Assembly: GCA_043797305.1 (NCBI GenBank)
Contig: JAZDPW010000012.1
Location: 1 to 56,418 of the forward strand
DNA: 56,418 bases
Source of the DNA: Candidatus Jorgensenbacteria bacterium
Lineage (GTDB): Bacteria; Patescibacteriota; Minisyncoccia; UBA6257; GWB1-50-10
Direction of reading: 5' to 3'
In this document: positions 18,679-38,327 of the stretch, in pieces
Numbering within the stretch: the stretch's first letter is position 1
Layout: each line of letters begins with the position of its first letter
Notes under the pieces: generated by a model
Databases searched by the model: none
What the model was told of the DNA's origin: nothing
What the model saw: only the letters and a program-made list of their open reading frames with translations
Translations under genes and position numbers: made by a program

Positions 18679-18812
18679 ATCCCGTTAGAAGTCCTAGGCA
18701 TAAAAATTCCAATGGAATTTTTATGCAGGGCACTAACGAGAACAAACCAAGCCAATCATTATTCACCAATATGACAAGGTCAATATTAAATAAAACAGAC
18801 TTCTAACGGGAT
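18679..18812 (+). repeat. TIR-bounded intergenic element, copy 1 (134 nt)
   Basis: ATCCCGTTAGAAG (18679-18691) is the exact inverted complement of CTTCTAACGGGAT (18800-18812). An internal perfect 13-bp AT-rich hairpin lies at 18698-18726. The right repeat contains the ATG of the Nudix gene. Confidence 0.85.
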
Positions 18813-19287
18813 GAAAGAACTTTCTGCCGGAATAATAATTTACAGACGGACCAAGGAAGGTCCGAAGTTTTTGCTCCTCTATCACGGCGGGCGGTACTGG
18901 AATTTCCCGAAAGGAAAAATCGACGACTCTTTGGGTAAAGAGACGACTTTCAAAGCCGCTCTTCGGGAAGTGAGGGAAGAAACAGGCATCCTGCCCCGCG
19001 ACTTGCGTATCAACAGCTGGTTCAAGAGTTACGACAAATACGTTTTTACTCAAAAAGGCAAAAAGGTTTTCAAGACGGTCGTTTATTATCTTGCCGAAAC
19101 GAACGAGCGAGACGTGAAAATTTCGGACGAGCATTCCGGTTTCGGCTGGTTTCTCGAGAAAGAAGCCCTAAGAATGCTTCTCTACGGCAACCTGAAAAAT
19201 AATCTGAAAAAAGCTTATGAAGTCGTTCAAGGAAAGCGTTTACCCCCACACCAAACGAGGACTAATCCGAAGCTGGAGAGAAAGTGA
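18811..19287 (+). CDS. NUDIX hydrolase
   Basis: Nudix box GKIDDSLGKETTFKAALREVREETGI. Confidence 0.85.
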   Translation: MKELSAGIIIYRRTKEGPKFLLLYHGGRYWNFPKGKIDDSLGKETTFKAALREVREETGILPRDLRINSWFKSYDKYVFTQKGKKVFKTVVYYLAETNERDVKISDEHSGFGWFLEKEALRMLLYGNLKNNLKKAYEVVQGKRLPPHQTRTNPKLERK

Positions 19288-19598
19288 TGAAGAAAAATCA
19301 TAAATCATCGGCGTTTGGTGTGGGGGTTTACCGAGCCACAAAAAGGATACCCCGCGGTAAAGTTTCCACTTACGCCGCAATTGCCCGCGTTATCGGCCGG
19401 CCCCGCGCCGCTCGGGCGGTCGGCAATGCCTTAAACAAGAATCCGTACGCTCCGCAAGTTCCTTGCCACCGGGTCGTCCGTTCCGACGGTCGGGTGGGCG
19501 GTTTTGCCGGCGGGCCGGCTAAAAAAACGCACCTCCTTAAGAAGGAGGGCGTTGGGGTAGAGTTGGGGAGAATTGACTTAAGGAAGTTTGGGGCTTAA
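19287..19598 (+). CDS. ogt: Methylated-DNA--protein-cysteine methyltransferase (MGMT/Ogt C-terminal domain)
   Basis: PCHRVV active-site motif and the YAAIA...GNAL pattern. The start is either GTG 19284 or ATG 19287. Confidence 0.8.
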   Translation: MKKNHKSSAFGVGVYRATKRIPRGKVSTYAAIARVIGRPRAARAVGNALNKNPYAPQVPCHRVVRSDGRVGGFAGGPAKKTHLLKKEGVGVELGRIDLRKFGA

Positions 19599-19942
19599 TC
19601 TTTGACGAATTCAACTATCTTTTTGAAGGTTTCAGGGCTGTCTTTAGCGAGACCGGACAGGATTTTCCGGTCGATTTTGACGCCTTTTTTCTTCAGGGCG
19701 TTTATGAACTTGCCGTATGTTAAACCCTCTTCCCGGACAGCGGCGTTAATGCGGGTATTCCAAAGGGCGCGGTAGACCCGTTTCTTTTCCTTCCGCCCGC
19801 GGAAAGCGTGAGTCCAAGCGTGGAGAAGAGCCTCTTTGGCGGCCCTTTCTTTCGACTTGCGGCCCCAGCGGAAACCCTTGGTGTATTTCAACACCCGCTC
19901 TCTTTTTTTATGGGCGACTTTGCCCCGTTTTACTCTCGCCAT
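19595..19942 (-). CDS. rplT: 50S ribosomal protein L20
   Basis: MARVKRGKVAHKKRERVLK... is the canonical L20 N-terminus. Confidence 0.95.
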   Translation of the reverse strand: MARVKRGKVAHKKRERVLKYTKGFRWGRKSKERAAKEALLHAWTHAFRGRKEKKRVYRALWNTRINAAVREEGLTYGKFINALKKKGVKIDRKILSGLAKDSPETFKKIVEFVKD

Positions 19943-19944
19943 GT

Positions 19945-20115
19945 TTAGTAATTTTTAATGTTTTCTTTCGGAATATTCAACCCCCGCTTTTTTCTCCTTC
20001 TCAAAATTTGAACGTTGCTCTTATTGGCGCGGGAGTGTCCTAACCCCATCGCCCGGCGTTTTATTTTTCCGGTCTTCGTTATTTTTATTCTGTTTTTAAT
20101 ACTGTTCTTCGCCAT
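19945..20115 (-). CDS. rpmI: 50S ribosomal protein L35
   Basis: MAKNSIKNRIKITKTGKIKRR..GLGH. Sits in the conserved infC-rpmI-rplT order. Confidence 0.85.
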   Translation of the reverse strand: MAKNSIKNRIKITKTGKIKRRAMGLGHSRANKSNVQILRRRKKRGLNIPKENIKNY

Positions 20116-20119
20116 TTTA

Positions 20120-20632
20120 TTATTTCGCATCTATTTGCATTATGAATCCTTTGCCGCCCCATTTCGGTTCCATCGTCACTTTGTAGGGAACTCTGATTAG
20201 TTTCAAGAAATCACCCAGTTTTTCCAATCCCCAACTCTTGTTGGCTTTTTCCCGGCCCCTCAAGAAAAGATTCAATTCCACTTTGTGGCCTTCCTTAAGA
20301 AATTCGTCGGCTTTTCTCGCCTTGATCTGGAGATCGTTTATGGCGGCGCGGGGCGTGACTCTTATCTGTTTTAACTCTTTGCGTTTTTCTCCCAGTCTTT
20401 GTTTTTTTTCTTCTTTCTCTTTCTGGTAGCGGAACTTGTCGAAACTGATTATCTTCGCCACCGGAGGCTTGGCATGGGGCGCGACCTCGATAAGATCAAG
20501 TTCCTTTTCTTCGGCGAGACGGAGAGCCTCTTCAGTTTTAAGGACGCCGAGGCTGTTTCCCTTTTCATCAATGACCCTGAGCTCGCGTGCTGATATTTCC
20601 TTGTTTATTCTGTAATTTATGACAATCAGCAT
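20120..20632 (-). CDS. infC: Translation initiation factor IF-3
   Basis: INYRINKEISARELRVIDEKG..LGV and the C-terminal domain. The start is uncertain because IF-3 often uses a non-ATG start. Confidence 0.85.
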   Translation of the reverse strand: MLIVINYRINKEISARELRVIDEKGNSLGVLKTEEALRLAEEKELDLIEVAPHAKPPVAKIISFDKFRYQKEKEEKKQRLGEKRKELKQIRVTPRAAINDLQIKARKADEFLKEGHKVELNLFLRGREKANKSWGLEKLGDFLKLIRVPYKVTMEPKWGGKGFIMQIDAK

Positions 20633-20697
20633 AGTCGGTTTTGATTGACATTGCAAGCTTCCGCCCTCCTGCTATAATTTTTACCATTATAAAATCA

Positions 20698-21024
20698 ATG
20701 GCTTTTTCTAAAAGACCGGTAATAAAATTCGTAAAATACGTCCTTAGTTTTTTTGAACTTTTCCTGGGGTTGCGGCTTATTCTTCGCCTGCTTGGCGCCA
20801 ATCCCTCGACGCCGATTGTCGATTTGCTCTACACCCTCACCGACACCATCATGATTCCTTTCCAGGGGATATTTTCCAATATGCGGTTTCAAAACGGGAG
20901 CGTTCTTGATGTCGTTGCCATAACCTCGATGATCGGTTACCCGATTATCGTTTATTTATTGATAGAACTAATTGACGCCATCGCCAAAGAGAAAAAGCGC
21001 GGAGTGGGAGACATCGAAATTTAA
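20698..21024 (+). CDS. YggT-like small membrane protein
   Basis: FELFLGLRLILRLLGANPSTPIVDLLYTLTD..IMIPFQ resembles the YggT/Ycf19 family. Start taken at internal ATG 20698. Confidence 0.45.
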   Translation: MAFSKRPVIKFVKYVLSFFELFLGLRLILRLLGANPSTPIVDLLYTLTDTIMIPFQGIFSNMRFQNGSVLDVVAITSMIGYPIIVYLLIELIDAIAKEKKRGVGDIEI

Positions 21025-21238
21025 ATGAGGGCCCCGGGTGGGTCCTCTTTGATAATTCTGTAAAACTAATACAAAAACTAATACATCCCGAAGCACAAGT
21101 GCCGCGGGATGTAATGCGATTGGGTCTTTTGACCCGATATCTTCCGTGGGCCTGGGAAACCCACGAGATGAGGCACGTATTCAACTGTGGAGAACTGAAC
21201 TTATTATAACCTTATCGGGAAACCTGTCTTGTGGATAA

Positions 21239-21293
21239 CTCCGACACCCCGACTAATACGGTTGGGGGTCGGAGTCCGACTGAAACGTCGGAC
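21239..21293 (+). repeat. Double-hairpin element, copy C
   Basis: ctccgac(a)cccc-gactaatacggtt-ggggGTCGGAG followed by GTCCGAC-tgaaac-GTCGGAC and TTTTT. Confidence 0.75.
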
Positions 21294-21321
21294 TTTTTAT
21301 AAGCTATAATAGACTTAGAAT

Positions 21322-21921
21322 ATGGGCTTTTCGAAGAAATTTTTCATTGCCTTGGTCGTGCTGGGAGTGCTAGGCGGGGTTTTTTATTTTGTTCTTGATA
21401 AGCCCAAAGAGTTGGGGGCGAAGGGGAACCCCCTTTTGAATTTATTCCTCGGCGACCCGGAGGATGCGTCCGATGGCGGAATAATTTCGGACGCCAAAGA
21501 ATTTATCAGTGACAAAACCTCTGCTTTGAAAGAAAGTATTAGTGGGAGCGTTAAAGAGAGCATTGAAGAAAAAGAGGGAGAGTTGGTGAATTACCTGAAA
21601 GAGGGGGCGAATGAGGCGATTGATACCGCTCAGGAGAAAATAGTCGGTGTGGGCAAAAGCGGGAGTGGTGGCAGTATCACGGTTTTGCCGGTAGTAAAAG
21701 CCGGGGCGAGTGCTTATTTTCTGATATCAAACCCGGAATCATCGGGAGAAGTTAAGTACGAGGTGGACTGGGGCGACGGTTCGGCGGAAAACGGGGTTTT
21801 GGCCACCAAAAACAAGACCGTTTCCCATTCGTGGGATAATGCGGGAGAATTCTCGGTAATTTTTAAAATTTCCGGCGCCGATTCCGTGAGCAAATCCATT
21901 AAGGTTATCGTGACCGAATAA
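21322..21921 (+). CDS. Membrane-anchored protein with a C-terminal PKD-like domain
   Basis: N-terminal TM segment. The C-terminal YEVDWGDGS...SHSWDNAGEFSVIFKI matches the PKD signature (WDFGDG...H.Y...G.Y). Confidence 0.55.
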   Translation: MGFSKKFFIALVVLGVLGGVFYFVLDKPKELGAKGNPLLNLFLGDPEDASDGGIISDAKEFISDKTSALKESISGSVKESIEEKEGELVNYLKEGANEAIDTAQEKIVGVGKSGSGGSITVLPVVKAGASAYFLISNPESSGEVKYEVDWGDGSAENGVLATKNKTVSHSWDNAGEFSVIFKISGADSVSKSIKVIVTE

Positions 21922-21922
21922 C

Positions 21923-21956
21923 AAAAAACCGCCTTAAACAAGGCGAGTTTTTGTTT
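21923..21956. terminator. Bidirectional hairpin between the PKD gene and the tmRNA 3' end
   Basis: AAAAAA-CGCCTT-aaac-AAGGCG-AGTTTTTGTTT. Confidence 0.45.
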
Positions 21957-21957
21957 G

Positions 21958-22277
21958 TGGACATGGCGAGAGTCGAACTCGCGTGTAGAGAGTTTCTCAA
22001 AAATCGTCTACAGGCTTACCCGCCGTAGAGGCGAGGAAATTTGGTTCCATGGTTTAGCTTACGACTATCGAACCGTTTCATCGTAAGCGAGCTCAATGTA
22101 TTACACCGGTTGAACCCTTATTGAGCATCAGGAACCGATGCCCGCTTAAGCGAAAGCTAAAGCAGGAGCTGCAACTTTGTTGTTGGCAGTTAAATTTGTT
22201 TGCCGAATTTTTAACGAGTTTCGGCGGCTCGGCCTGCAAATTCTCGAAAACGCACTCTGTCAAAGCCCATCATGCCC
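21958..22277 (-). ncRNA. ssrA: tmRNA (SsrA)
   Basis: The 5' GGGCAUG pairs with the 3' CAUGUCC-A, including G3:U70. T-arm GCGAG-UUCGACU-CUCGC. The tag reading frame GCC AAC AAC AAA GTT GCA GCT CCT GCT TTA GCT TTC GCT TAA encodes ANNKVAAPALAFA* (22146-22187). Lies directly downstream of smpB. Confidence 0.85.
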
Positions 22278-22700
22278 GCGAATTTCCCGTTCCGTTTCCC
22301 GTTTTTTAATGAGCTCGCGCTTGTCCTTTTTCTTTCTTCCTCTCCCGAGTCCCAATTCAACCTTTACCAATCCGCGGTCAGTATAGACGCGAAGGGGTAC
22401 CAGAGTCAAATTCGCCTCTAGTTTACCGATGAGATAATTTATCTCCTCCCGATTCATAAGGAGTTTTTTGGTTCGTTTCGGGTCGTAGTCGGTTGGAGCG
22501 TTTCCCGGTTGGAAAGAAGGGACTTCCATTCCGAGAACGTAGAGTTCGCCGCCGCGAATTATCGCGTGGCTTCCGGCAATATTTATCCGGCCCATTTTTA
22601 TGGATTTTGCCTCATGGCCGGTAAGTTCAATACCCGCCTTGAATTTCTCGAGGATTTCGTAATCAAAGCCGGCTCGCTTGTTTAAGGCCAATACCTTCAT
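22260..22700 (-). CDS. smpB: SsrA-binding protein SmpB
   Basis: NKRA.FDYEI.EKF.AGIEL.G.E.KS... is the canonical SmpB N-terminus, and the C-terminal tail is basic. Confidence 0.9.
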   Translation of the reverse strand: MKVLALNKRAGFDYEILEKFKAGIELTGHEAKSIKMGRINIAGSHAIIRGGELYVLGMEVPSFQPGNAPTDYDPKRTKKLLMNREEINYLIGKLEANLTLVPLRVYTDRGLVKVELGLGRGRKKKDKRELIKKRETEREIRGHDGL

Positions 22701-22877: not shown

Positions 22878-24554
22878 GTGAGAAACAAAATCATCGGCTA
22901 CCTCAAAAAAATCGTCCCGAAGGGCGTAGAAATTGACCTTTCTGTTCCCGAGAGCGGGAAATTCGGCCATTACTCCACAAGCATCGCTTTTGGGCTTTCC
23001 AAGCAGGAGAAGAAAAGCCCGAAGGTAGTTGCCGAGGAAATCGTCCAAAGGCTTAAAAAAGCGGCGCCAAAAGGCTTTTTCCGGAAGATAGAAATCGTAA
23101 ACGGTTTTATTAACCTTTGGATTGGCGACGGGGTGTTTTACAGGGAAATCGTGGAGGTTTTGAAAAAGAAAGGTGAATACGGCCGCAACAACAATTTGAA
23201 AGGCCAGAAGACGATAGTGGAGTACACCGACCCCAATCCCTTCAAGGAGTTTCATATCGGCCACCTGATGCCTAACGTGATCGGCGAAGCCGTCTCGCGC
23301 CTCGTCGAATGGAACGGCGCGAAAGTGCGGCGGGCCTGTTACCAGGGTGATGTCGGTTTGCATGTTGCCAAAGCCGTTTGGGGTCTCCAAAAATCGGGAA
23401 TAAAAAAGATTGTTTCGGTATCGGATTTGGCAAAAGCTTACGCTTTGGGAACACAGGCATATGAGACCGCCGATTTGGCGAGAAGTGAAATTAACACCAT
23501 CAACAAAAAAATATACGAGCGGAGCGATAAGGAAATAAACCGCCTGTATGATGCCGGCCGCAAATTATCCCTCAAATATTTTGAAGGCATCTATAAAAAG
23601 CTCGGCACCAAATTCGATTATTACTTCTTCGAATCCGAGAGCGGCGAACACGGGAAAAAGACGGTTCTTGCGGGGCTAAAGAAAGGCATTTTTGAAAAGA
23701 GCGACGGGGCGATTGTATTCCGGGGCGAGAAATACGGTTTGCATACCCGGGTCTTTATAAACACCGAAGGTTTGCCTACCTATGAAGCCAAGGAGCTGGG
23801 TTTGGCCGAGATTAAATACAGAAAATACGCTTACGATAAGTCTATAATCGTTACCGGCAACGAGGTAAACGACTATTTCCGGGTTCTTTTGAAGGCGATG
23901 GCGGAAATTTTTCCGAAACTCGCCGAGAGGACCGAACATCTTTCCCACGGCATGATGCGGCTTGCAAGCGGCAAGATTTCTTCGCGAACCGGCGAGGTGA
24001 TTACGGCCGAGTCGCTTATAGACAAAGTGGAAAAACTGGTTGCCGGAAAGATGAAAAACGAAGACTTGAGCGTTAAGGAGAAAAACGAGGTAAAAGAAAA
24101 GGTAGCGATAGCCGCCTTGAAGTACTCGATTTTGAAGCAGGCGATCGGCGGCAGCATTATTTTTGATTTTGGGAAATCCATATCTTTCGAGGGCGATTCT
24201 GGTCCTTATCTCCAATACGCCTACGTGCGTGCGAAGTCGGTTCTGGAAAAAGCCAAGCAGGAAAAAATTAATGCGTCTTTGAAACGTTTGCCGGAGAAAA
24301 TTTCCGAAATCGAGCCGGTGCTTGCCCGTTTTCCGGAGATTGTGGAGAGAGCCGGCCGGGATTACGCGCCGCAATACCTCTCGACTTACCTCATAGAACT
24401 CGCCAGGATTTTTAATTCCTACTACGCCAAGGTCAAGATTGTTAAAGCGGGGGATAAAGAGTCACCTTATCGGGTGGCTTTAACTTCCGCTTTCAGTGAG
24501 GTAATGAGAAACGGTCTTCGGATTCTGGGAATCTCCGTCCCGGAGAAAATGTAG
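22878..24554 (+). CDS. argS: Arginine--tRNA ligase
   Basis: EYTDPNPFKEFHIGHL (HIGH), a class-I core, and an anticodon-binding C-terminus ending in M. GTG start at 22878. Confidence 0.9.
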   Translation: MRNKIIGYLKKIVPKGVEIDLSVPESGKFGHYSTSIAFGLSKQEKKSPKVVAEEIVQRLKKAAPKGFFRKIEIVNGFINLWIGDGVFYREIVEVLKKKGEYGRNNNLKGQKTIVEYTDPNPFKEFHIGHLMPNVIGEAVSRLVEWNGAKVRRACYQGDVGLHVAKAVWGLQKSGIKKIVSVSDLAKAYALGTQAYETADLARSEINTINKKIYERSDKEINRLYDAGRKLSLKYFEGIYKKLGTKFDYYFFESESGEHGKKTVLAGLKKGIFEKSDGAIVFRGEKYGLHTRVFINTEGLPTYEAKELGLAEIKYRKYAYDKSIIVTGNEVNDYFRVLLKAMAEIFPKLAERTEHLSHGMMRLASGKISSRTGEVITAESLIDKVEKLVAGKMKNEDLSVKEKNEVKEKVAIAALKYSILKQAIGGSIIFDFGKSISFEGDSGPYLQYAYVRAKSVLEKAKQEKINASLKRLPEKISEIEPVLARFPEIVERAGRDYAPQYLSTYLIELARIFNSYYAKVKIVKAGDKESPYRVALTSAFSEVMRNGLRILGISVPEKM

Positions 24555-24640: not shown

Positions 24641-26452
24641 ATGTATAAATCAGAAACAAAAAACTGTCAGAATTGCAAAAAGGATTTCGTTATAGAACCG
24701 GACGATTTTGCTTTTTACAAGAAAATAGATGTCCCGCCGCCAACTTTTTGTCCAGAGTGTAGAGTGGTTCGGCGGCTTGTCTGGGTTAATGACAGGTCAC
24801 TTTATAGACGTAAGTGCGGTTTCTGCCCCAAAGAAGTGATTTCAGCTGTTCCTCCAACGTCGCCTATGCCCGTATATTGCAATCATTGTTGGTGGTCCGA
24901 TAAGTGGGATCCGAAGGACTACGGTGTCGATGTTGATTTCTCTCGTCCTTTTTTGGAACAATTCTCGGAGCTTTTGAGCCGCGTACCCTGGCCTGCGCTT
25001 GACACAATCGAGTCGTCAAACGTGCGGAGTGAGTACACTCACCACACATCTTATCTTAAAGATTGCTACTTAATGGCAAACACCGATTATAGTGAGGATT
25101 GTGCTTATGGAGCTTATGTGGAATACAGTAGAAACTCCTTTGATCTTTTGTTTTCCGATTACTGCACGGAGTGTTATGAAGGAGCAAACCTGTCAAAATG
25201 TAATAAAGTTTTTTTCTCATTAAATTGCGAGGATTGTTACAACGTTGCCCTTTCAATTAATTGTGTTGGTTGTTCTGACTGTTTCGGTTGCGTCAATCTT
25301 AGGAACAAGCAATACCACATTTTTAATGAGCCGTACTCGAAAGACGACTATAAAAAGAAAATTCAAGAGTTTGATTTAGGCTCTTTTAAAACCATTAATT
25401 TAGTAAGGCAGAAACTCAATGAACTATCCACCCGTTCTGTGCATCGGTATATGCATGGCAGAATGAACCGCGATGTATCCGGAGAGTATATTTATCGTTC
25501 CAAGAACGTAAAAGACAATTATCAGGTGATGGATACGGAGGATAGCAGATATTGCCATTTTATGATTCTTCCTACGACAAAAGACAGTTATGATTTCACG
25601 ATGTGGGGTGGGAATGCAGTTCGGATGTATGAGTGCGTATCATGCGGAGGAGGTAGCAATAACGTGCGATTCACTTTTCAGTGTTGGACCGAGCCGATAA
25701 TAAACGTGGAATACTGTACTTATCTCACTGCCGCCCCATGCCAAAATCTTTTTGGCTGTATAGCGTTGAAAAAAAGCAAAAACTGTATTTTAAACAAACA
25801 ATATACGGAAGAAGGGTTTAAGAAACTAAAGAAGAAAGTTATTGAGCACATGAATAAAATGCCCTATGTCGATAGAAGAAACAGGATTTATAAATACGGA
25901 GAATTCTTTCCAATAAATTTTTCACCATTTGCTTATAACGAAACCATTGCCCAGGAGTACTTCCCCCTGACCAAGGAACAAGCTATATCTCAAGGATATC
26001 GTTGGAAAGACCTCGAAACCAAGGAATACAAGGTCACCAAGCGCCCGGAAGACCTCCCAGACCAAATCAAGGACGTAGACGACAGAATCTTGAAGGAAAC
26101 CATCGGTTGTACCCACGCCAGTCCGCCAGCCGGCGGATGCAACGAACAATGCACTACCGCTTTCAAAATTATCGAACCGGAACTTCAATTCTACCGCAAG
26201 ATGAACCTTCCCTTACCTAGATTATGTCCCAATTGTCGTCACTACCAACGCTTAAAACAAAGAAACCCCCTTAAGTTGTGGCATCGCACTTGCCAGTGTG
26301 CCGGAGATAAATCAGAAAATAGTATCTATTCAAACAACACAAAACACTTCCATGAGAACGGTCATTGCCCCAATGAGTTTGAAACACCTTATTCTCCGGA
26401 CAGGAAAGAAATTGTGTATTGCGAAAGCTGCTACAATGCTGAAATTGCATGA
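24641..26452 (+). CDS. Cys-rich hypothetical protein with related zinc-ribbon-like modules at both termini
   Basis: 603-aa ORF with many CxxC pairs. The N-terminal and C-terminal segments share the same FY.K...P.P..CP.CR...R....N...L..R.C ... VYC..C pattern. The gene is AT-rich. Confidence 0.7.
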   Translation: MYKSETKNCQNCKKDFVIEPDDFAFYKKIDVPPPTFCPECRVVRRLVWVNDRSLYRRKCGFCPKEVISAVPPTSPMPVYCNHCWWSDKWDPKDYGVDVDFSRPFLEQFSELLSRVPWPALDTIESSNVRSEYTHHTSYLKDCYLMANTDYSEDCAYGAYVEYSRNSFDLLFSDYCTECYEGANLSKCNKVFFSLNCEDCYNVALSINCVGCSDCFGCVNLRNKQYHIFNEPYSKDDYKKKIQEFDLGSFKTINLVRQKLNELSTRSVHRYMHGRMNRDVSGEYIYRSKNVKDNYQVMDTEDSRYCHFMILPTTKDSYDFTMWGGNAVRMYECVSCGGGSNNVRFTFQCWTEPIINVEYCTYLTAAPCQNLFGCIALKKSKNCILNKQYTEEGFKKLKKKVIEHMNKMPYVDRRNRIYKYGEFFPINFSPFAYNETIAQEYFPLTKEQAISQGYRWKDLETKEYKVTKRPEDLPDQIKDVDDRILKETIGCTHASPPAGGCNEQCTTAFKIIEPELQFYRKMNLPLPRLCPNCRHYQRLKQRNPLKLWHRTCQCAGDKSENSIYSNNTKHFHENGHCPNEFETPYSPDRKEIVYCESCYNAEIA

Positions 26453-26693: not shown

Positions 26694-29600
26694 ATGCTAA
26701 GAAAAATAAAGGATTTTTCGCTGCCGGAAGTTGAGGAGAAAGTTCTCAAGTTCTGGACCGAAAACAAGGTTTTTGAGAAGTCGCTCAATAACCGAAAAAA
26801 CAAAAAGAAATTTGTTTTCTTCGAAGGTCCGCCGACGGCAAACGGCCGGCCAGGTCTTCATCACGTTCTAGTCCGTTCCTTTAAAGACATAATCCTCCGC
26901 TACAAAACGATGACGGGGTTTTTCACGCCGCGGCGCGGCGGTTGGGACACTCACGGTCTCCCGGTTGAAATCGAGGTGGAAAAGGAGCTGGGCTTGAAAT
27001 CCAAGCAGGGGATTGAAAAATACGGTATCGCCGAATTCAATCGAAAATGCCGTGAATCGGTTTGGCGGTACAAGGACGAATGGGAAAAGCTCACCCGCCG
27101 CATCGGTTTCTGGTTGGACATGGACAATGCTTACGTTACTTACGAGCCAAAATACATCGAAACGCTTTGGTGGATAATTTCCGAAATTTGGAAAAAGAAA
27201 CTTTTATACAAAGGTTACAAAGTCGTGCCGTGGTGCACTCGTTGCGGCACCGGCCTTTCTTCCCACGAACTCGCCCTGGGGTACAAGGAGGTTGAAGAAA
27301 ACTCGGTTTATTTGAAATTCAGGAGTAAAAGCGGAAAATTGAAGAACGCTTATATCCTTTCGTGGACTACCACTCCCTGGACGTTGCCGGGGAATGTCGC
27401 TCTTGCGGTAAACGCCAAAGTGAAATACGTATTGGCGGAAAAGAACGGGGAAAAGTTAATTTTAGCCAAAGAACGGATCTCAGCTCTCGGCGAGTCACCG
27501 GAAGTTTTGAAAGAATTTTCAGGCAAAGAACTTTTGGGCTTGGAATACGAGCCGCTTTTTAAGGTTTCGGCGCTTAAGTCCAGGACTTCATACAAAGTTT
27601 ATGCCGCCGATTTCGTGACAATCGAAGAGGGTACGGGCGTGGTCCATACCGCGGTGATGTACGGCCCGGACGACTATGATCTCGGGATAAAAGTCGGCTT
27701 GCCTCAGTACCACACCGTCGACGAGAAAGGATTTTTCCTGAAGAACGTGCCGGTTGTGGGCGGTATGTATGTCAAGGACAAAAAGACCGAAGAAAAAATC
27801 ATAGATTATTTAAAAACCAAAAAGTATTTGCTGAAAACCGAACTCTACAAGCACGATTACCCATTTTGCTGGCGTTGCAGCACGCCGCTTCTCTACTACG
27901 CCCGCGATTCCTGGTTTGTGGCGATGTCGAAGCTTCGGGCGAAACTTATCGCTTCCAACAATAAAATCAACTGGATTCCGGAGAACATAAAACAAGGCCG
28001 TTTCGGCGAATGGCTTCGGGAAGCGAAAGATTGGGCTTTTTCCCGCGAACGTTATTGGGCAACGCCGTTACCCGTCTGGATTTGCGATAAATGCGGTGCG
28101 GCGGAGGTTGTGGGCGGCGTGGAGGAACTCGAGAAGCACTTAGGTAAGAGCACGAATAAGTACATTCTTGTACGGCACGCGGAGGCCAAGAATAACGTAG
28201 AAGGTATCGTTAGTTGTTGGCCGGAGAAGAAGAAATACCCTCTCACCACTATTGGAAAAGACCAGGCTTTCCAGCTCGGTCAGGAAATGAAAAAACGGAA
28301 AGTAGATTTGATATTTGCTTCCGATGTGCAAAGAGCCAAAGAAACTGCCGAGATAATTTCCAAGGAAACCGGTCTAAAAGTCGTTTATGACCCGCGGTTA
28401 CGGGAGTTGAACATCGGCGATTTTAACGGTAAACGCCACGAGGAATACAGCCGTTATTTCAGCGATCCCCGCGAACGTTTTAGTCGCCCGGTTCCCAACG
28501 GCGAATCTCTTTATGAAGTAAAGAAACGAGTTTTTGATTTTATAAAGTCCGTCGAAAAGAAATACAAAAATAAAACTATTATTGTGGTAGGCCACGGCGA
28601 TCCTTTATGGATGATGCAAAGCGTAATGGCCGGGCTTTCGGACGGAGACATGACTGGGGAAGACGGTCTTAAAAATTTATATCCCGAAAAAGGCAAAGCC
28701 TATCCGGCGCATTTTAGAAACATCTCCCGCAACGAAATTGGCGAGTTGGACCTACACCGTCCTTACATTGATGGAATTCATTTCCCTTGTCCCAAACCGC
28801 GGTGTAAAGGCAAAATGGCGCGGGTAAAAGAAGTTGTTGACGGTTGGTTCGATTCCGGAGCAATGCCTTTCGCCCAAAATTATTACCCTTTCGATAAAAA
28901 ATTGGAGTTTCCGGCCGATTTCATAGTTGAAGGCGTTGACCAGACCCGGGGCTGGTTTTATACCCTCCTTGCTACCGCTGTCCTCTTAGGCAAGGGCGCG
29001 CCTTATAAGAACGTGATTTCCCTGGGACTGATCTTGGATAAAAACGGCCAGAAGATGTCTAAGTCCAAGGGCAACGTCGTGAATCCCTGGGAAATGGTCC
29101 AAAAATTCGGAGCGGACGCGATTCGCTGGTATTTCTACACCATAAACCCGCCCGGCGAGTTCAAGCGCTTCGACGAAAAAGACATCATAAAAGGAGCCCG
29201 CCAATTCATTTCTCTTCTCTATAATTCATTCGCTTTCCTGAACACCTATGATACCGGAACGCATAGGATTCCGCAGTTTACCGCTAAAACCGCAAACTCA
29301 AACGTTTTGGACAGGTGGATTGTTGCCCGTCTTCATCAAACCATTGATTCGACAACCAAGGATCTGAATCGTTATGAGGTCGGGGGAGCGGCTCGCGGAA
29401 TCGAGAGTTTCGTAAACGATCTCTCGCGTTGGTATATCCGTCGTTCCCGTCGCCGGTTCCAAAAACCAGAGAGCCGAAAAGATTACGAGATGGCTCTTAG
29501 CACGCTAAATTACGTGCTTTTGGAAACGAGCAAGCTTATTGCGCCGTTTACGCCGTTCTTCGCCGAAGCTTTGTATAAGTCATTAGTCATAAATCATTCG

Positions 29601-30182: not shown

Positions 30183-30863
30183 ATGAAAATAGAAAAAGAA
30201 AAATTGTTTTTTGAGCAGGAAGAAAAATCACGCCGGCTTGAAGATGTTATGGATTTGCTCAAAACGGAAACCGACGAAGAAAAAATAAAGGAACTTACGA
30301 AAGAGGCATATCCGCTTATTAAAATCAGGTTTTTGGAATCCGGCGGAGTTTTTCACGATGACATTGAAGAGCTTTATCACGGCTTGAGAGGGAATTTTAT
30401 TGTCAGAATGGATAGTCCCGAGAGGGTCGTGAGTTCCATCGGGACGCATGAAGATTTGAGGATTTTGCCGAAAAAAGACCATCCTAATGCCGTGGAGTGG
30501 CGAAGCGAATACGGTTCAATAGGTCTTCAAGATGCTTTCTCGGAAGGAACGGGTATGTTGGGCGGCCTTATTACGGTCATTGGTTTCAAAAAAGGGAGAG
30601 ATATTAAGGTGGGCGATGTCGGAGAAGAAGAAAAAGACATGTTTGGCCGGGAACGCGGCCTGGTAAGGGTTGCAAAAGGCAGGGTGCACCCCAAGGACGT
30701 GCAGTTTGTCATCCTTCGCTTACCGACAGATTGTTTCCCGGAAGAGGAAATTACACCGCAGGAGAAAATGGATATCCAGAAACGTAATCGGCACTTTATT
30801 TTTAGAGGATTCGCTTTCAACGAAAGTGCCAAACCTGCAAGAGAGGAAAGAATAGCGGCTTAG
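30183..30863 (+). CDS. Hypothetical protein
   Basis: 226-aa ORF starting 3 nt after the ileS stop. No motif recognised. Confidence 0.5.
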   Translation: MKIEKEKLFFEQEEKSRRLEDVMDLLKTETDEEKIKELTKEAYPLIKIRFLESGGVFHDDIEELYHGLRGNFIVRMDSPERVVSSIGTHEDLRILPKKDHPNAVEWRSEYGSIGLQDAFSEGTGMLGGLITVIGFKKGRDIKVGDVGEEEKDMFGRERGLVRVAKGRVHPKDVQFVILRLPTDCFPEEEITPQEKMDIQKRNRHFIFRGFAFNESAKPAREERIAA

Positions 30864-30869
30864 CCCTGG

Positions 30870-31850
30870 TTAAATAAAAAGTCCAATTTTCTTTTTGACT
30901 TCCAAGAGTTTTTTGGAGGCGACAGCGTTTGCTTTTTTGTTCCCCGAAGCGAGCGCTTTTTTAATTTCCGCAGTTTTTATTCTTTTCTTCCTTTCCTGGA
31001 ACGGCCGGAGGGCGCGGATTACGATTTCAGCCAGACCCTTTTTAAACTCGGCGTAGCCCTTACCGGCATACATTTTTTCAATCGCATTCACCGGTTTGCC
31101 GGAGAGCTCGGAATAAATCAAGAGCAGATTACTCACACCGGGCTTCGACTTCTCGTCGTATTTGATTTCTTTCCCCGAATCAGTCGTTGCCCGCATTACT
31201 TTCTCGCGGATTTTTTCGGGCGAGTCTTCTAGGAAAAGACAACCGGTAGGCTGAGATTTGGACATTTTTTTAGTTGGGTCATCCAAACTCATCAGGCGCG
31301 GCACTTTGGTAAGAAGCGGTTTTGGTTCGATAAAAGTTTTACCGAATTTGTTGTTGAACTTTCTTACAAGCGTCCGAGAAAGCTCAAGGTGTTGTAGCTG
31401 GTCTTCGCCGACCGGCACCACCGCCGCGTCGTAGAGGACGATGTCGGCAGCCATGAGCGCCGGGTAGGTCAAGAGACCGATATTGATGTTTTGTTTTTGG
31501 GCTTCGGATTTGTTTTTAAACTGCGTCATCCGCTCCATTTCCCCCAAAGGGGCGACGGTTTCGAAAATCCAACCAAGTTCCGGGTGAGCCGGCACTTCCG
31601 ACTGCTGAAAAATGACGGAGTTTTTGCCGATGCCGGCGGCAAGATAATCGGCCGTGAGGTCTAGAATTTGCTTCGGTTTCTCCCGCGGGTCGAAAAATTC
31701 CGTAAGCGAATGGAGGTCAGCGATGAAAAAATAACACTCGTATTTGCCGGAATTCTGGAGCTCGACGAAGTTTTTAAGAGCGCCCAAATAGTTTCCTAAG
31801 TGGAGTTTCCCTGTGGGCTGGATGCCCGATACAAGAATTGGTTTTGCCAT
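30870..31850 (-). CDS. trpS: Tryptophan--tRNA ligase
   Basis: GIQPTGKLHLGNYLG (HIGH) and KMSKS. Confidence 0.9.
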   Translation of the reverse strand: MAKPILVSGIQPTGKLHLGNYLGALKNFVELQNSGKYECYFFIADLHSLTEFFDPREKPKQILDLTADYLAAGIGKNSVIFQQSEVPAHPELGWIFETVAPLGEMERMTQFKNKSEAQKQNINIGLLTYPALMAADIVLYDAAVVPVGEDQLQHLELSRTLVRKFNNKFGKTFIEPKPLLTKVPRLMSLDDPTKKMSKSQPTGCLFLEDSPEKIREKVMRATTDSGKEIKYDEKSKPGVSNLLLIYSELSGKPVNAIEKMYAGKGYAEFKKGLAEIVIRALRPFQERKKRIKTAEIKKALASGNKKANAVASKKLLEVKKKIGLFI

Positions 31851-33595
31851 TATACCTCTATTATAACCGGTAAAATCATCGGTCGGCGCTTGGTCTTATT
31901 GTAGAGGAATTGACCGATTTGGTCGCGAATCAGAGACTTGATGTAGTCGGCGTCAACCGTCTGATGCCGCGGGATGCGGCCTAAAATCCCCCTGATTCTC
32001 CGGCGAATTTCATCCAATAATTCCTTGTGGTCCTTGAGGTAAATGAAGCCGCGGGAGATGATATCCGGATTTTTGAGAACCCGGCCGCTCTGGCGGCTTA
32101 GTGTCGCGATGACAACCACCATTCCTTCCTGGGCAAGAGTGAGTCGGTCGCGGAGGACCACCTCACCGACATCGCCCACTCCCAAGCCGTCAACCATGAC
32201 GTAGAAGGCCGGAATTTTTTCGCCGCTTATGACGGCGGAATTTTTGGTAAACTCCACCACCAAGCCGTTGTCGGCAATCAGGGTTTCTTCCGGTTTCAGG
32301 CCCACTTCATTCTGGGCGAGTTTCGCGTTTTGGGCGCGCATAAAGTAGTAGCCGTGGATGGGCAGGAAAAAGCGGGGCTTTACGAGCCTTATTACGGTTT
32401 TCAGCTCTTCCTGAGGAGCGTGGCCCGACGAGTGAATGTCGAGCATCTTGTAGTGATAAATGGTCGCACCCTGGCGGGTGAGATTGTCTTTGAGGTTCTG
32501 AACGCTTCTTTCGTTTCCCGGCACGATTGAGGCAGAGAGGACAACCGTATCGGTTTTCTTTATTCTTACGTGCTTGTGTTCGCCGTTTGCAATGCGCATC
32601 AGAGCCGCATTCGGTTCGCCTTGGGCGCCGGTCGCAAGGACCATTACTTGCTCGTCCGGATGCTTATTCACTTCTTCTATCGGGATAAGCGTGCCTTTTT
32701 GGATTTTAAGGTAGTTAAGATTTTGGGCTATCTGGATGTTGGTTTTCATCGAGTAGCCGCTTATCGCCACTTTTCTTTTCAGCCGTTCGGCAATTTTTAT
32801 GATTTCGCCCAAACGGTCCAAGAGCGAAGAGAAAGTGCCGACGACTATTCTGCCTTTAGCCGACTTGAATATTTTTTCGAGTTCCTTTTCAACCACTCTT
32901 TCGGAAAGGGAAAAGCCCGGCGTCTCCGCTCCGGTTGAGTCGAGCATTAAGGTGTGGATTTTTTGTTCGCCGACCCATTTCCAGGCATCCAGTCCCCGGG
33001 GCTTGCCCTCGTTGTCGTAATCGAACTTGAATTCGCCGGGATGGACAATATTGCCTACCGGCGTGTGAAAAATCATTCCGACTCCTTCGGGAATATTGTG
33101 GATGACGTCGAAGAAAGTGACCGAAAAGTGCTCTCCCAGCCTGTGAGTTTCTTTGCCCTTCACGATTACGAAGGCGGGTTTCGGCGAGTTCGGGAAATCT
33201 TCCTGTCTTTTAAGGATTATTTCCTTGCTGATTTCAGTCGTGTAAATCGGCGGGTTGCCGAGTTTGTGGAGGACGTAAGGAATGGCGCCAATGTGGTCAT
33301 AGTGGCCGTGGGTGATGATGAGCGCCTTGATGTGCTGTTTTCTGGTTTCAAGATAAGAGACGTTGGGGATAATGTAGTCGATGCCGGGCGTTTCTTCTTC
33401 GGGAAACTGCAAACCGGCGTCAACAATGACGATTTCATCCTTGTATTCCAGGAACATCATGTTGCGGCCGATTTCTTCCAAGCCGCCGAGCGCCGCCCAG
33501 CGGACTATTTCTTCCTTGCCGGTTCTCATCGGTTTTTTGACCGGCGCCGCGGCTCTTGTTCTTCTTCTCATTGTTTTTGCTGTTTGTGTAACCAT
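31850..33595 (-). CDS. rnj: Ribonuclease J
   Basis: MBL motif ITHGHYDHIG, beta-CASP region, and the HSSGHA motif. Confidence 0.9.
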   Translation of the reverse strand: MVTQTAKTMRRRTRAAAPVKKPMRTGKEEIVRWAALGGLEEIGRNMMFLEYKDEIVIVDAGLQFPEEETPGIDYIIPNVSYLETRKQHIKALIITHGHYDHIGAIPYVLHKLGNPPIYTTEISKEIILKRQEDFPNSPKPAFVIVKGKETHRLGEHFSVTFFDVIHNIPEGVGMIFHTPVGNIVHPGEFKFDYDNEGKPRGLDAWKWVGEQKIHTLMLDSTGAETPGFSLSERVVEKELEKIFKSAKGRIVVGTFSSLLDRLGEIIKIAERLKRKVAISGYSMKTNIQIAQNLNYLKIQKGTLIPIEEVNKHPDEQVMVLATGAQGEPNAALMRIANGEHKHVRIKKTDTVVLSASIVPGNERSVQNLKDNLTRQGATIYHYKMLDIHSSGHAPQEELKTVIRLVKPRFFLPIHGYYFMRAQNAKLAQNEVGLKPEETLIADNGLVVEFTKNSAVISGEKIPAFYVMVDGLGVGDVGEVVLRDRLTLAQEGMVVVIATLSRQSGRVLKNPDIISRGFIYLKDHKELLDEIRRRIRGILGRIPRHQTVDADYIKSLIRDQIGQFLYNKTKRRPMILPVIIEV

Positions 33596-36598: not shown

Positions 36599-36627
36599 AT
36601 TGTATAGCCCCCCTTTTAGAGTGTCAA
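36599..36627 (-). promoter_or_regulatory. Near-consensus sigma70-type promoter for the candidate ncRNA
   Basis: On the minus strand: TTGACA (36627-36622), a 17-nt spacer, then TACAAT (36604-36599). The -35 hexamer overlaps the gpmI stop codon. Confidence 0.55.
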
Positions 36628-38195
36628 GAAGTCAGTTGCCTAAGCAGGCTCTCGCCGGTCATTTCTTCCGGTTTGGGGATTTTCATAAGTTCCAGGAGAG
36701 TTGGAGCCACATCCGAGAGGATGCCGATAACCGGCATTTTCCGGGGGCTGGTGTCGGGGATGGAAAAAGGTTTTTCAAATTCCCGGGCCACAAGATAAAT
36801 CGGCACGGGGTTTGGGTCGTGAAAAGTTTCCGGCTCGCCGGTCTGGAGATTTAAAACCGATTCGGCATTGCCGTGGTCGGAAGTGACGACAAGAACATGG
36901 TTTCCTTCCAGTACTTCCTTTACCAATCGCCCCAGCTCCTGGTCAACGATTTTTACGGCCTTAAGAGTCGCCTCGTAATTGCCGGTATGGGCGATAAGGT
37001 CGGGGTTTGCGTAGTTTATAAGGATGAAATCGAATCCGCCTTCCCTTAAAGCGATAATCGCCCGGTCGGTTACTTCTTTTGCCATCATTTCCGGATTCTC
37101 CTCGTGCCGGATAGTGGTTTTCGAAGGGACGAGAACCCGGAACTCGTTCGGATAGGGAGCCTCCCGCAGGCCGTTGAAAAAGTAGGTGATGTGGGCGTAT
37201 TTTTCCGTTTCGGCAATCCGGAGCTGGGTAAGGCCCTTATCGGATAGCAGTTTCCCGAGAGGATTTTCCACCTTGCTTTTCGGGAAAGCGGCCGGGGTTT
37301 TTTGGTCATCGGTGTACCCGGTCATCGTGACTACAAAAGTATTTTTAAGGGGTTTAATCGGGAACTTATTGAAATCCGGGTTCAGAAACGGTTCGGAAAT
37401 TTGGCGCATGCTGTCTTCCCGGAAATTGAAGAAGATGATGGTGTCGTTGTCCTTGACTGGGTGCGGCTCGATGACGGTCGGTTCAATGTATTCGTCGTCG
37501 AGGTCCCGGCCGTAAATTTTGTTTATTGCTTCTTCCAGATTTGCCGCCGTTTGATTTTCGCCGGTAATGGTCTGATAAGCTTTTTCGGTTCTTTCCCAGA
37601 GATTGTTTCTGTCCATGCCGAAATAGCGGCCCGTCACGCTCGCGATAACGCCCACGCCGGTTTTGGCAATAACTTCATTGAGTTTTTTGAGAAGAGGAAG
37701 AACCGAACGAGGCGGACTGTCGCGGCCGTCGGAGAAAAGATGAAGATAAAGATTTTGCATTTTCTCTTTTGCCGCCATTTCAATTAAGGCGGCGAGGTGG
37801 TCGAAGGAAGCGTGGACGTTGCCTTGGGTGAGAAGGCCGATGAGGTGAACCGAAGAAATATTCTCTTTGGCGTGGGAGAAGGCGTTTTTAAGTTCGGGTA
37901 CCTGGAAAAAGGAGCCGTCTTCAATCGCCATCGATATTTTCGGGAAATACTGATAGATAATTTTTCCGGCGCCGAGGGTAAGGTGTCCTACTTCGCTGTT
38001 GCCTTCTTCTTCCCAGGGGAGGCCGATGGCGATGCCGGAGGCCTGAAGAGCACCCTTGGGAAATTTCGTTTCCAGTTCCTTTATGGTTTCCAAATCTGCC
38101 TTATAAATGGGGTTTGACTCGTTGAATTCGCCCAAACCCCAGCCGTCGAGGATTGCGAGAATAAAGGTTCTTTTCATTAAATCTAATTCTATCAT
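36624..38195 (-). CDS. gpmI: 2,3-bisphosphoglycerate-independent phosphoglycerate mutase
   Basis: LAILDGWG start, GNSEVGH motif, and C-terminal TSDHGNAE. Confidence 0.9.
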   Translation of the reverse strand: MIELDLMKRTFILAILDGWGLGEFNESNPIYKADLETIKELETKFPKGALQASGIAIGLPWEEEGNSEVGHLTLGAGKIIYQYFPKISMAIEDGSFFQVPELKNAFSHAKENISSVHLIGLLTQGNVHASFDHLAALIEMAAKEKMQNLYLHLFSDGRDSPPRSVLPLLKKLNEVIAKTGVGVIASVTGRYFGMDRNNLWERTEKAYQTITGENQTAANLEEAINKIYGRDLDDEYIEPTVIEPHPVKDNDTIIFFNFREDSMRQISEPFLNPDFNKFPIKPLKNTFVVTMTGYTDDQKTPAAFPKSKVENPLGKLLSDKGLTQLRIAETEKYAHITYFFNGLREAPYPNEFRVLVPSKTTIRHEENPEMMAKEVTDRAIIALREGGFDFILINYANPDLIAHTGNYEATLKAVKIVDQELGRLVKEVLEGNHVLVVTSDHGNAESVLNLQTGEPETFHDPNPVPIYLVAREFEKPFSIPDTSPRKMPVIGILSDVAPTLLELMKIPKPEEMTGESLLRQLTS

Positions 38196-38327
38196 CTTGC
38201 GGGTTTATAAACCCTAAAAATAGGAAAATTAAGAGATTAGCCAAATTGACAAAAGCGAAATCCCGGTTTATCCTAAAAAGAATAAATTCGTTAAAAAAGT
38301 CGATGAACATCAAACTTGCATACTTAT

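Follow-up and report, generated by a model that had tools for sequence, protein, structure and literature searches.

The window analysed here is a 56,418-nucleotide stretch of DNA from a Candidatus Jorgensenbacteria bacterium (contig JAZDPW010000012.1, positions 1 to 56,418), and in it the gene for a type-2 isoleucyl-tRNA synthetase (IleRS) carries a complete branch-1 histidine phosphatase (HP) within its reading frame, an arrangement we write as ileS::HP. We infer that IleRS and the phosphatase make up a conserved functional pair that has become covalent in this lineage. The explanation that we favour overall, to which we give a probability of about 0.5, is that the two are functional partners and that the phosphatase domain is active and acts beside the synthetic site. 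The preliminary description of this DNA had proposed a histidine phosphatase with intact-looking catalytic residues, lying in a continuous reading frame where other IleRS have a short linker after the zinc-binding segment. Profile searches, residue conservation and structure prediction all bear this out, the insert separating the zinc-binding segment into two halves, and the motifs it quoted lie where it placed them, in an open reading frame (ORF) that is uninterrupted and has one terminal stop (Table 1).

Pfam recognizes tRNA-synt_1, Anticodon_1 and DUF5915 in the window protein, with His_Phos_1 (PF00300) between them. The PF00300 match spans aa 491-649 and covers 2-162 of the 194 profile positions, with a score of 126 bits (cutoff 21.7) and an E value of 1.9e-36; segment 28158-28740 searched alone gives 5.4e-38. 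We followed the catalytic residues through a homologue set consisting of the 120 best full-length database matches to the window protein, which are 55-77% identical to it and 1110-1373 aa long. The residues are intact, as previously described: the two arginines and two histidines occur without exception, and the acid is replaced only by aspartate (Table 1). The third position of the RHG-type motif, an alanine in the window protein (VRHAE at aa 493), is glycine in 116 homologues and alanine in 4. In residue-by-residue alignment R494, H495, R547, E571 and H634 coincide with identical residues of PhoE (1h2e) and of a phosphoserine phosphatase (4ij5), at positions that we take to be the catalytic residues of those enzymes. 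The full RHNREH pattern is present in 262 of the 336 domain instances collected, the remainder being mostly fragments or conservative changes. Mean identity is 41% over the phosphatase domain and 66-68% over the IleRS catalytic body. Because the catalytic set has stayed invariant while the domain diverged more than its host, selection appears to have acted on the chemistry, and the inserted domain is, to judge from these residues, probably a catalytically active phosphomonoesterase.

Structure prediction gave the same picture. An AlphaFold2 (AF2) model of the full window protein, built on the homologue alignment, has a pLDDT of 91.8 and a pTM of 0.85; pLDDT lies at about 92-97 over most of the insert, and a separate model of the domain reaches 87. 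When the domain model was searched with Foldseek, the closest structures were 4ij5/4ij6, the phosphoserine phosphatase (E 5e-15, root-mean-square deviation (rmsd) 1.9 Å), followed by PhoE, GpgP, a riboflavin-pathway phosphatase and CobC. Matches to 4ij6, 1h2e and 4pza had E values near 1e-14 (5e-15 to 1e-13 overall), TM scores of about 0.7 and rmsd of 1.9-2.6 Å. The modelled domain has the alpha/beta fold of the superfamily. Fold and sequence together group the domain with short phosphomonoesterases of small substrates (phosphoserine phosphatase, PhoE, GpgP, CobC) and not with mutases. It misses every NCBIfam equivalog cutoff, among them those of CobC (95.6 vs 162.9), PspA (89.4 vs 350) and SixA (29.8 vs 74.5). 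The modelled resemblance to the phosphoserine phosphatase iPSP1 is high, yet we treat it as a lead and not as membership in the phosphoserine phosphatases.

The preliminary description had named, as speculation, action on a phosphorylated tRNA end or nucleotide and a moonlighting metabolic function in a reduced genome. In a phosphoglycerate-mutase version of the latter the domain would be a cofactor-dependent phosphoglycerate mutase (dPGM) serving glycolysis in a reduced genome, and the best NCBIfam model is indeed dPGM_arch, at 111.8 bits. This is well under that model's cutoff of 225, and pgm_1 (44 vs 81.7) and GpmB (75 vs 261) are missed as well. Chains of dPGM and bisphosphoglycerate mutase (BPGM) align only over the N-terminal 100-105 or so residues of the 208-aa query, with no stretch over threshold. 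The phosphatases, for which the aligned stretch is about 160 residues, also have the higher TM scores and are ranked first by Foldseek. In addition, the window encodes a cofactor-independent phosphoglycerate mutase (iPGM; Table 1), so the inserted domain is not needed as the genome's glycolytic mutase. On these grounds we rejected a glycolytic dPGM identity; the suggestion is weakened, and we consider it very improbable.

The host enzyme is a complete type-2 IleRS. TIGR00392 (ileS, isoleucine--tRNA ligase) scores 873.7 bits against a cutoff of 621.4, in two stretches with the insert between them, and comparison with PDB sequences gives 784-827 bits to IleRS2 and the Thermus thermophilus enzyme vs 360-377 bits to type 1, the top matches being T. 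thermophilus IleRS (1ile) and Priestia megaterium IleRS2. Foldseek ranks IleRS2 structure 8c8u first for the full model (E 1e-86), then yeast IleRS-tRNA complexes and 1ile; none of the PDB IleRS matches of the full model has an extra domain at the position of connective peptide 3 (CP3). Conservation at IleRS positions was assessed over 114 homologues. In the GLHH form of the HIGH signature H57 is invariant and H56 nearly so; W224, T225, T226, T227, W229, T230 and L231 of the CP1 editing motif are invariant, as are K787, M788, S789 and K790 of the KMSKS loop. A WFDSG motif lies at aa 718, the anticodon-binding domain PF08264 at aa 873-1018, and the type-2 C-terminal domain PF19302 is also present. 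The editing site thus appears intact from its sequence, and because the signature motifs are intact the enzyme presumably still charges tRNA-Ile. There is no second ileS within the window.

The site of insertion can be located precisely. Alignment with 1ile matches query residues 2-482 to 2-479 and residues 685-1012 to 488-821, so that about 200 query residues replace about 8. The junctions read ...GKSTN|KYILVRH... and ...NEIG|ELDLHRPY..., with conserved residues N488 and Y490 on one side and P678, R679, G683 and D686 on the other. The phosphatase lies between the cysteine pairs C464/C467 and C699/C704 of the CP3 zinc knuckle and is joined to them by short linkers. In the first half of the knuckle (WICDKCG at aa 462) C464 is invariant and C467 nearly so; in the second half (DLHRPY at aa 686, CPKPRCKG at aa 699) H688, P690, D693, C699 and C704 are invariant. 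Relatives from the Candidate Phyla Radiation (CPR) that lack the insert read '...GSREELKKLSGQAVNDLHKQYVD...' at the knuckle linker and '...WICDKCDEKIVIGSREELKKLSGQAVNDLHKQYVDEITWACKCGG' at the insertion point.

This position places the phosphatase close in sequence to a linker whose yeast counterpart handles the end of the tRNA. The CP2-CP3 linker of the window protein, in which D446, R451, R453 and W455 are invariant, corresponds to yeast residues 453-ARDWNVSRNRYWG-465, whose Arg454, Arg460 and Arg462 make up the CCA-end pocket that reveromycin A occupies (PMC7955072). The phosphatase starts 36 residues past R453, the last invariant arginine of this linker. CP3 is delimited at 473-534 in Candida albicans and 459-526 in Saccharomyces cerevisiae (PMC7191050, PMC7955072), the T. 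thermophilus CP3 contains a zinc-binding motif (PMC7191050), and the published maps put the segment from RDW..SR.RYW to the second Rossmann half in CP3. Because CP3 continues from a linker whose yeast counterpart holds the CCA end, the insert would be grafted onto a module that extends from the element binding the CCA end and lies alongside the active site; the placement is taken from published domain maps (PMC7191050, PMC7955072, PMC12077802).

We surveyed orthologues for the same architecture. PF00133 and PF00300 occur together in 120/120 of the best homologues, several of them on contigs of 0.5-0.8 Mb, under source names that include Patescibacteria, Candidatus Jorgensenbacteria, Brennerbacteria, Paceibacterota, Minisyncoccia and Parcubacteria. 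A junction-spanning segment searched against 1.84 billion cluster representatives matched 229 clusters at E<=1e-30, and the best 150 of these 50%-identity clusters all span the IleRS flanks and the phosphatase. Eight species-representative genome assemblies (loci L001-L008) carry the insert at the same point, while in 22 other loci of the same scan (L009-L030), which include IleRS labelled Dojkabacteria, Falkowbacteria, Clostridia and archaea, the interval is spanned in about 100 residues. Several proteins of the family are named just 'class I tRNA ligase family protein' by NCBI. Locus L009 (contig CAZQLY010000001.1) encodes an IleRS very near that of the window (787 bits to the ileN hidden Markov model (HMM)), with neither insert nor nearby phosphatase gene; its record label, 'uncultured Gammaproteobacteria', looks doubtful as a bin label.

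These data bear on whether the insert is an assembly chimera or a functionless selfish insertion of the intein kind. The GC content at third codon positions (GC3) is somewhat lower in the insert than in its flanks (0.48 vs 0.53-0.59), which speaks for such an origin. Hundreds of independent assemblies, however, share the same in-frame junctions, with junction and catalytic residues conserved, and for that reason misassembly was ruled out. Neither insert junction has intein-type residues (a nucleophile at the N-junction, or His-Asn followed by Cys/Ser/Thr at the C-junction), and Pfam finds no intein, Hint or endonuclease domain in the whole window protein, the insert matching PF00300 only; an intein or other mobile element was ruled out on junction residues and domains alike. 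We regard this explanation as scarcely credible.

The insert has a free-standing counterpart. Proteins of about 190 aa (P0017-P0030) align with it end to end, collinear from about residue 4 to the C terminus, at 33-50% identity, and have in common with it a WPEK-x3-LT loop. In four distinct loci the gene for such a protein lies directly 3' of argS, and in three of these (L036, L037/L038 and L039/L040) it is also directly 5' of an insert-less ileS, with gaps of 2-15 nt. The gene order is argS-HP-ileS in L036-L040 vs argS-ileS::HP in L001 and L003-L008. In none of the loci compared do the two forms occur together: where ileS carries the insert, argS is upstream and no separate phosphatase gene is present, and where that gene is present, ileS has no insert. 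The surroundings are orthologous, the window reading PolX, NUDIX, MGMT-like, L20, L35, IF3, tmRNA/SmpB, argS, ileS, and L036 and L039 reading NUDIX, (MGMT), L20, L35, IF3, SmpB, argS, HP, ileS. Stand-alone and inserted domains are on average 33% identical, about the same as inserted domains among themselves (35%). In a neighbour-joining tree of the IleRS body, for which no support values were calculated, insert, neighbour and absent states are interleaved; because the tree mixes the three states in this way, it suggests several transitions between them. The simplest reading is that a single functional partnership takes two physical forms at this orthologous locus. In the window, exactly the place between argS and ileS that the stand-alone phosphatase gene takes in relatives is filled by a cysteine-rich ORF of 603 aa, which has numerous CxxC pairs and no Pfam match.

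Searches with HMMs built from the homologue alignment then revealed variants at other sites. The preliminary description's account of the insert stands, but the single case that it implied does not: the domain recurs across Patescibacteria as neighbour or insert, at several sites, in tandem and in valyl-tRNA synthetase (ValRS). Some IleRS have it in a loop that follows WFDSGAMPFAQ, at about aa 732-735 in window-protein numbering (P0371, P0376, P0331), or just before the anticodon-binding domain (about aa 854-864; P0299, P0334, P0371, P0376), and others have tandem pairs in CP3 (P0359, P0360, P0375); both copies in the tandem proteins keep RHNREH. One locus of the P0371 cluster (L032, 8001-12260) encodes a 1419-aa IleRS with two phosphatase domains, one after the WFDSG helix and one before the anticodon-binding domain; its neighbours are POR, SufBD, adenylosuccinate synthase, DAHP synthase and an SLH protein, and members of the cluster lie on contigs of up to 1.06 Mb.

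One ValRS (P0348) has four phosphatase copies. Among the matches listed, 70 of 119 other ValRS relatives (P0387-P0504) contain a PF00300-type domain, in 1-3 copies; the carriers come under the source names Candidatus Gracilibacteria and Peregrinibacteria, in some cases on contigs of up to 1.37 Mb (loci include L033, L034 and L043). Most ValRS inserts fall between RDWxISR and DTWFSS, the equivalent of CP3, and some before RDW, in the CP2 region. They form a sequence group of their own, 33% identical within the group and 25% identical to the IleRS inserts, and do not have the WPEK motif. Because the ValRS and IleRS groups are distinct and domains at secondary sites resemble the primary-site domain of the same host synthetase, the sequences point to separate acquisitions in IleRS and ValRS, followed by intragenic duplication.

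Alternatively, the domain could be a non-catalytic module, a structural, tRNA-binding or phosphate-ligand-sensing appendage whose pocket only binds, since some ValRS copies are without the acid or the second His and tandem arrays are commoner in binding modules. In the IleRS family, on the other hand, the whole catalytic set (nucleophile His, two Arg, acid and second His) hardly varies, tandem copies included, in a domain of which the rest is only about 35-41% identical. We therefore give a purely binding module long odds.

How an active phosphatase might serve its synthetase can be outlined only as a low-confidence guess. The domain may work in cis, its substrate being a phosphomonoester present at the synthetic site or close to it. 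We entertain this because the insertion sites cluster in peripheral modules round the synthetic-site entrance (CP2, CP3, the post-WFDSG loop and the loop before the anticodon-binding domain) and insertion recurred independently in ValRS; because CP3 is contiguous with the CCA-binding linker; because capture by two editing synthetases was repeated and specific; and because a patchy, multi-copy distribution is typical of accessory protective modules. The likeliest substrate, again a guess of low confidence, would be of the nucleotide type, for example a phosphorylated tRNA 3' end or a nucleoside monophosphate. Its phosphate would otherwise block or inhibit charging, and removal would permit or protect it.

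Several observations weigh against a partnership of this kind. The sequence does not reveal a substrate, each of the nearest relatives with a solved structure acts on small metabolites, and we found no precedent in the literature for an enzyme of the histidine-phosphatase superfamily acting on tRNA ends or in RNA repair. The domain evolves faster than the IleRS core, by the mean identities given above (41% vs 66-68%), and the existence of close IleRS relatives without the insert (L009, L016-L026) implies that the synthetase can dispense with it. In ValRS a minority of copies has lost the acid or the second His, and an insert-less relative exists at the same locus (L042 vs L043). No phosphatase gene neighbours the insert-less valS in the two loci examined, and the neighbour-or-insert pattern is for this reason shown for IleRS only.

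Much of this evidence can be turned towards the main rival, a metabolic phosphatase (of the phosphoserine, sugar phosphate or phosphoglycerate type) that rides on IleRS with a chemistry unrelated to aminoacylation; linkage and fusion would then serve gene economy, stability or co-expression in tiny cells. Metabolite phosphatases (4ij5, 1h2e, 4pza, 9mmh, CobC) provide the closest structures and profiles, and an insert that close relatives dispense with and that evolves faster than its host would suit such a passenger. What it leaves unexplained is the repeated and specific insertion into IleRS and ValRS, at four kinds of loop and in up to four copies, and likewise the fixed place of the stand-alone form immediately upstream of ileS. 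We judge it unlikely though a serious contender, about half as likely as the general reading in which the phosphatase is a functional partner.

Two more specific proposals have the phosphatase working for its synthetase. In the first, the modules embedded in or operon-coupled to IleRS and ValRS are cis-acting repair or immunity domains, which would free the 3' CCA end of the tRNA, or the catalytic loop of the synthetase, of an inhibitory phosphate or pyrophosphate. Removal would take place during entry of the substrate into the synthetic site and would shield the charging of tRNA-Ile and tRNA-Val from phosphorylating toxins or RNA damage; an arms race would then have left its mark in the sporadic distribution over several sites and copies. 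We think this unlikely. If it were true, synthetase accessory domains would gain a new functional class, and the phosphatase superfamily its first activity directed at nucleic-acid ends (or at a synthetase).

In the second, a rival to the favoured explanation, a protein phosphatase would guard the synthetase by removing an inhibitory phosphate from IleRS or ValRS, for example from a serine of the KMSKS loop. HipA/HipT-type toxin kinases phosphorylate the KMSKS loop in GltX and TrpS, though we know of no report that toxins phosphorylate IleRS or ValRS. Such a guard would be in keeping with a superfamily that includes the protein phosphatases SixA, PGAM5 and Sts-1, and with a sporadic multi-copy, multi-site distribution that resembles an arms-race module, all sites surrounding the catalytic core. 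The domain, however, keeps the PhoE-like cap typical of small-substrate enzymes, its score against the SixA model is far under the cutoff, as noted above (29.8 vs 74.5 bits), and no kinase is encoded nearby in the window. We consider a protein phosphatase improbable.

Table 1. Positions of the ileS::HP gene, its functional elements and other features of the window. Residue counts refer to the homologue set described in the text.
Feature	Positions	Strand	Basis or remarks
ClpB/ClpC-type AAA+ chaperone gene	13771-16266	+	no recognisable Clp_N
PolX-PHP, NUDIX, MGMT-like, L20, L35, IF3, tmRNA, SmpB	16948-22700		syntenic with L036, L039/L040
tmRNA	21957-22277		tag ANNKVAAPALAFA
argS (arginyl-tRNA synthetase), conserved upstream synteny partner	22878..24554	+	Pfam tRNA-synt_1d + DALR_1 + Arg_tRNA_synt_N
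603-aa cysteine-rich ORF	24641-26452	+	between argS and ileS
ileS::HP, type-2 IleRS with embedded histidine phosphatase, 1161 aa	26694..30179	+	TIGR00392, PDB matches, AF2 model
GLHH, type-2 form of class I HIGH signature, aa 54-57	26853..26864	+	sequence; aligns with GVHH of P. megaterium IleRS2
WTTTPWTL, threonine-rich CP1 editing motif, aa 224-231	27363..27386	+	sequence
CP2-CP3 linker AKDWAFSRERYWA, aa 444-456	28023..28061	+	conservation, yeast counterpart
CP3 zinc knuckle, first half WICDKCGAAEVVGG (C464, C467)	28077..28118	+	conservation
Inserted branch-1 histidine-phosphatase domain, aa 489-683, equal to a whole stand-alone protein of ~190 aa	28158..28742	+	PF00300, alignment, model
R494-H495, RHG-type motif (RHA here), putative nucleophilic His	28173..28178	+	R, H in 120/120 homologues; aligns with RHG of PhoE, iPSP1
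R547, putative second phosphate-binding Arg	28332..28334	+	120/120 homologues; DVQRAKE at aa 544
E571, putative general acid/base	28404..28406	+	E 117/120, D 3/120; RLRELN at aa 568
H634, putative second catalytic His	28593..28595	+	120/120 homologues; VGHGD at aa 632
CP3 zinc knuckle, second half DLHRPYIDGIHFPCPKPRCKG (C699, C704)	28749..28811	+	conservation
KMSKS signature loop, aa 787-791	29052..29066	+	sequence
226-aa ORF	30183-30863	+	no Pfam match
trpS	30870-31850		
RNase J	31850-33595	-	
Cofactor-independent phosphoglycerate mutase	36624-38195	-	PF06415 iPGM_N + PF01676; 6.5 kb downstream of ileS
RNase Y	38316-39857	+	
ClpB/ClpC-type AAA+ chaperone gene	50482-53112	+	

Other genes of the window are listed with these features. 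Three class I synthetase genes, argS, ileS and trpS, lie within 9 kb, with RNase J and RNase Y near them. The 226-aa ORF begins 4 nt past the ileS stop and may be co-transcribed with ileS. Two ClpB/ClpC-type chaperone genes occur in the 56 kb.

In full-text searches of PubMed Central and bioRxiv we came upon no account of an IleRS or ValRS combined with a histidine phosphatase. Each component belongs to a known family, and the sequences are public with automatic Pfam matches; what is new, as far as can be told, is the combination, the CP3 position, the alternation with an operon form and the recurrence in ValRS. Few known enzymes are as conserved as the aminoacyl-tRNA synthetases, in which an accessory domain is usually a sign of added biology such as editing, regulation or complex assembly. 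Here two class Ia synthetases of the CPR have repeatedly captured a catalytic domain for which no link to translation is known, in three forms: as an operon partner, as an insert at several loops surrounding the active site, and as tandem arrays. The CPR makes up a large share of bacterial diversity, with a minimal, host-dependent physiology that is poorly understood. Separate gene, insert and absence at one orthologous locus supply natural controls. The substrate could expose an unrecognised step of tRNA or synthetase maintenance, a new resistance to translation-targeting toxins or, at minimum, a principle of gene economy in ultra-small cells, and the finding should interest both the synthetase and CPR fields.

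Comparison with known systems shows what is shared and what is particular to this one. IleRS2 (P. megaterium 8c8u-8c9d and T. thermophilus 1ile) matches over its full length, at the 784-827 bits given above and TM scores of up to 0.79-0.88, and shares the GxHH variant, KMSKS, the CP1 editing motif, the CP3 knuckle cysteines and the C-terminal PF19302; its knuckle halves are joined by a short linker (about 8 residues in 1ile), as against a 195-aa enzyme domain here. The short branch-1 phosphatases (iPSP1, 4ij5, of Hydrogenobacter thermophilus; PhoE/YhfR, 1h2e, of Geobacillus stearothermophilus; Rv2419c GpgP; and CobC) agree with the insert in fold, catalytic residues and a length of about 190-210 aa, and the ExxxGDF/WxGK segment that follows the acid in the window domain is similar to PhoE. 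They are free-standing enzymes with defined metabolite substrates, whereas the domain described here is embedded in or operon-coupled to IleRS and has a family-specific WPEK-x3-LT loop after the RHG motif. The stand-alone 'WPEK' phosphatases (P0020, P0023, P0029; L036-L040) share motifs, genomic locus and 33-50% identity with the insert; they differ in being separate polypeptides, beside an IleRS with an ordinary short CP3. The ValRS of Gracilibacteria and Peregrinibacteria, a paralogous class Ia synthetase, carries inserts of the same domain superfamily, mostly in CP3, which differ in belonging to a distinct phosphatase lineage (25% identical to the IleRS inserts) with some degenerate copies.

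Two curated families with fused catalytic domains offer further parallels, and the query matches both models in part. NF005567, 'bifunctional RNase H/acid phosphatase', likewise joins a branch-1 histidine phosphatase to a nucleic-acid-handling enzyme, but by terminal fusion to RNase H and not by internal insertion (query 72 vs cutoff 326). NF040702, 'isoleucine--tRNA ligase, N-acetyltransferase domain-containing', is an IleRS with a foreign catalytic domain of another kind (GNAT) at another position (query 318.8 vs cutoff 1999); its GNAT-specific part apparently covers about model positions 276-496, judged from where ordinary IleRS stops and resumes matching. As a separate NCBI-curated IleRS family, it indicates that IleRS has captured other catalytic domains too.

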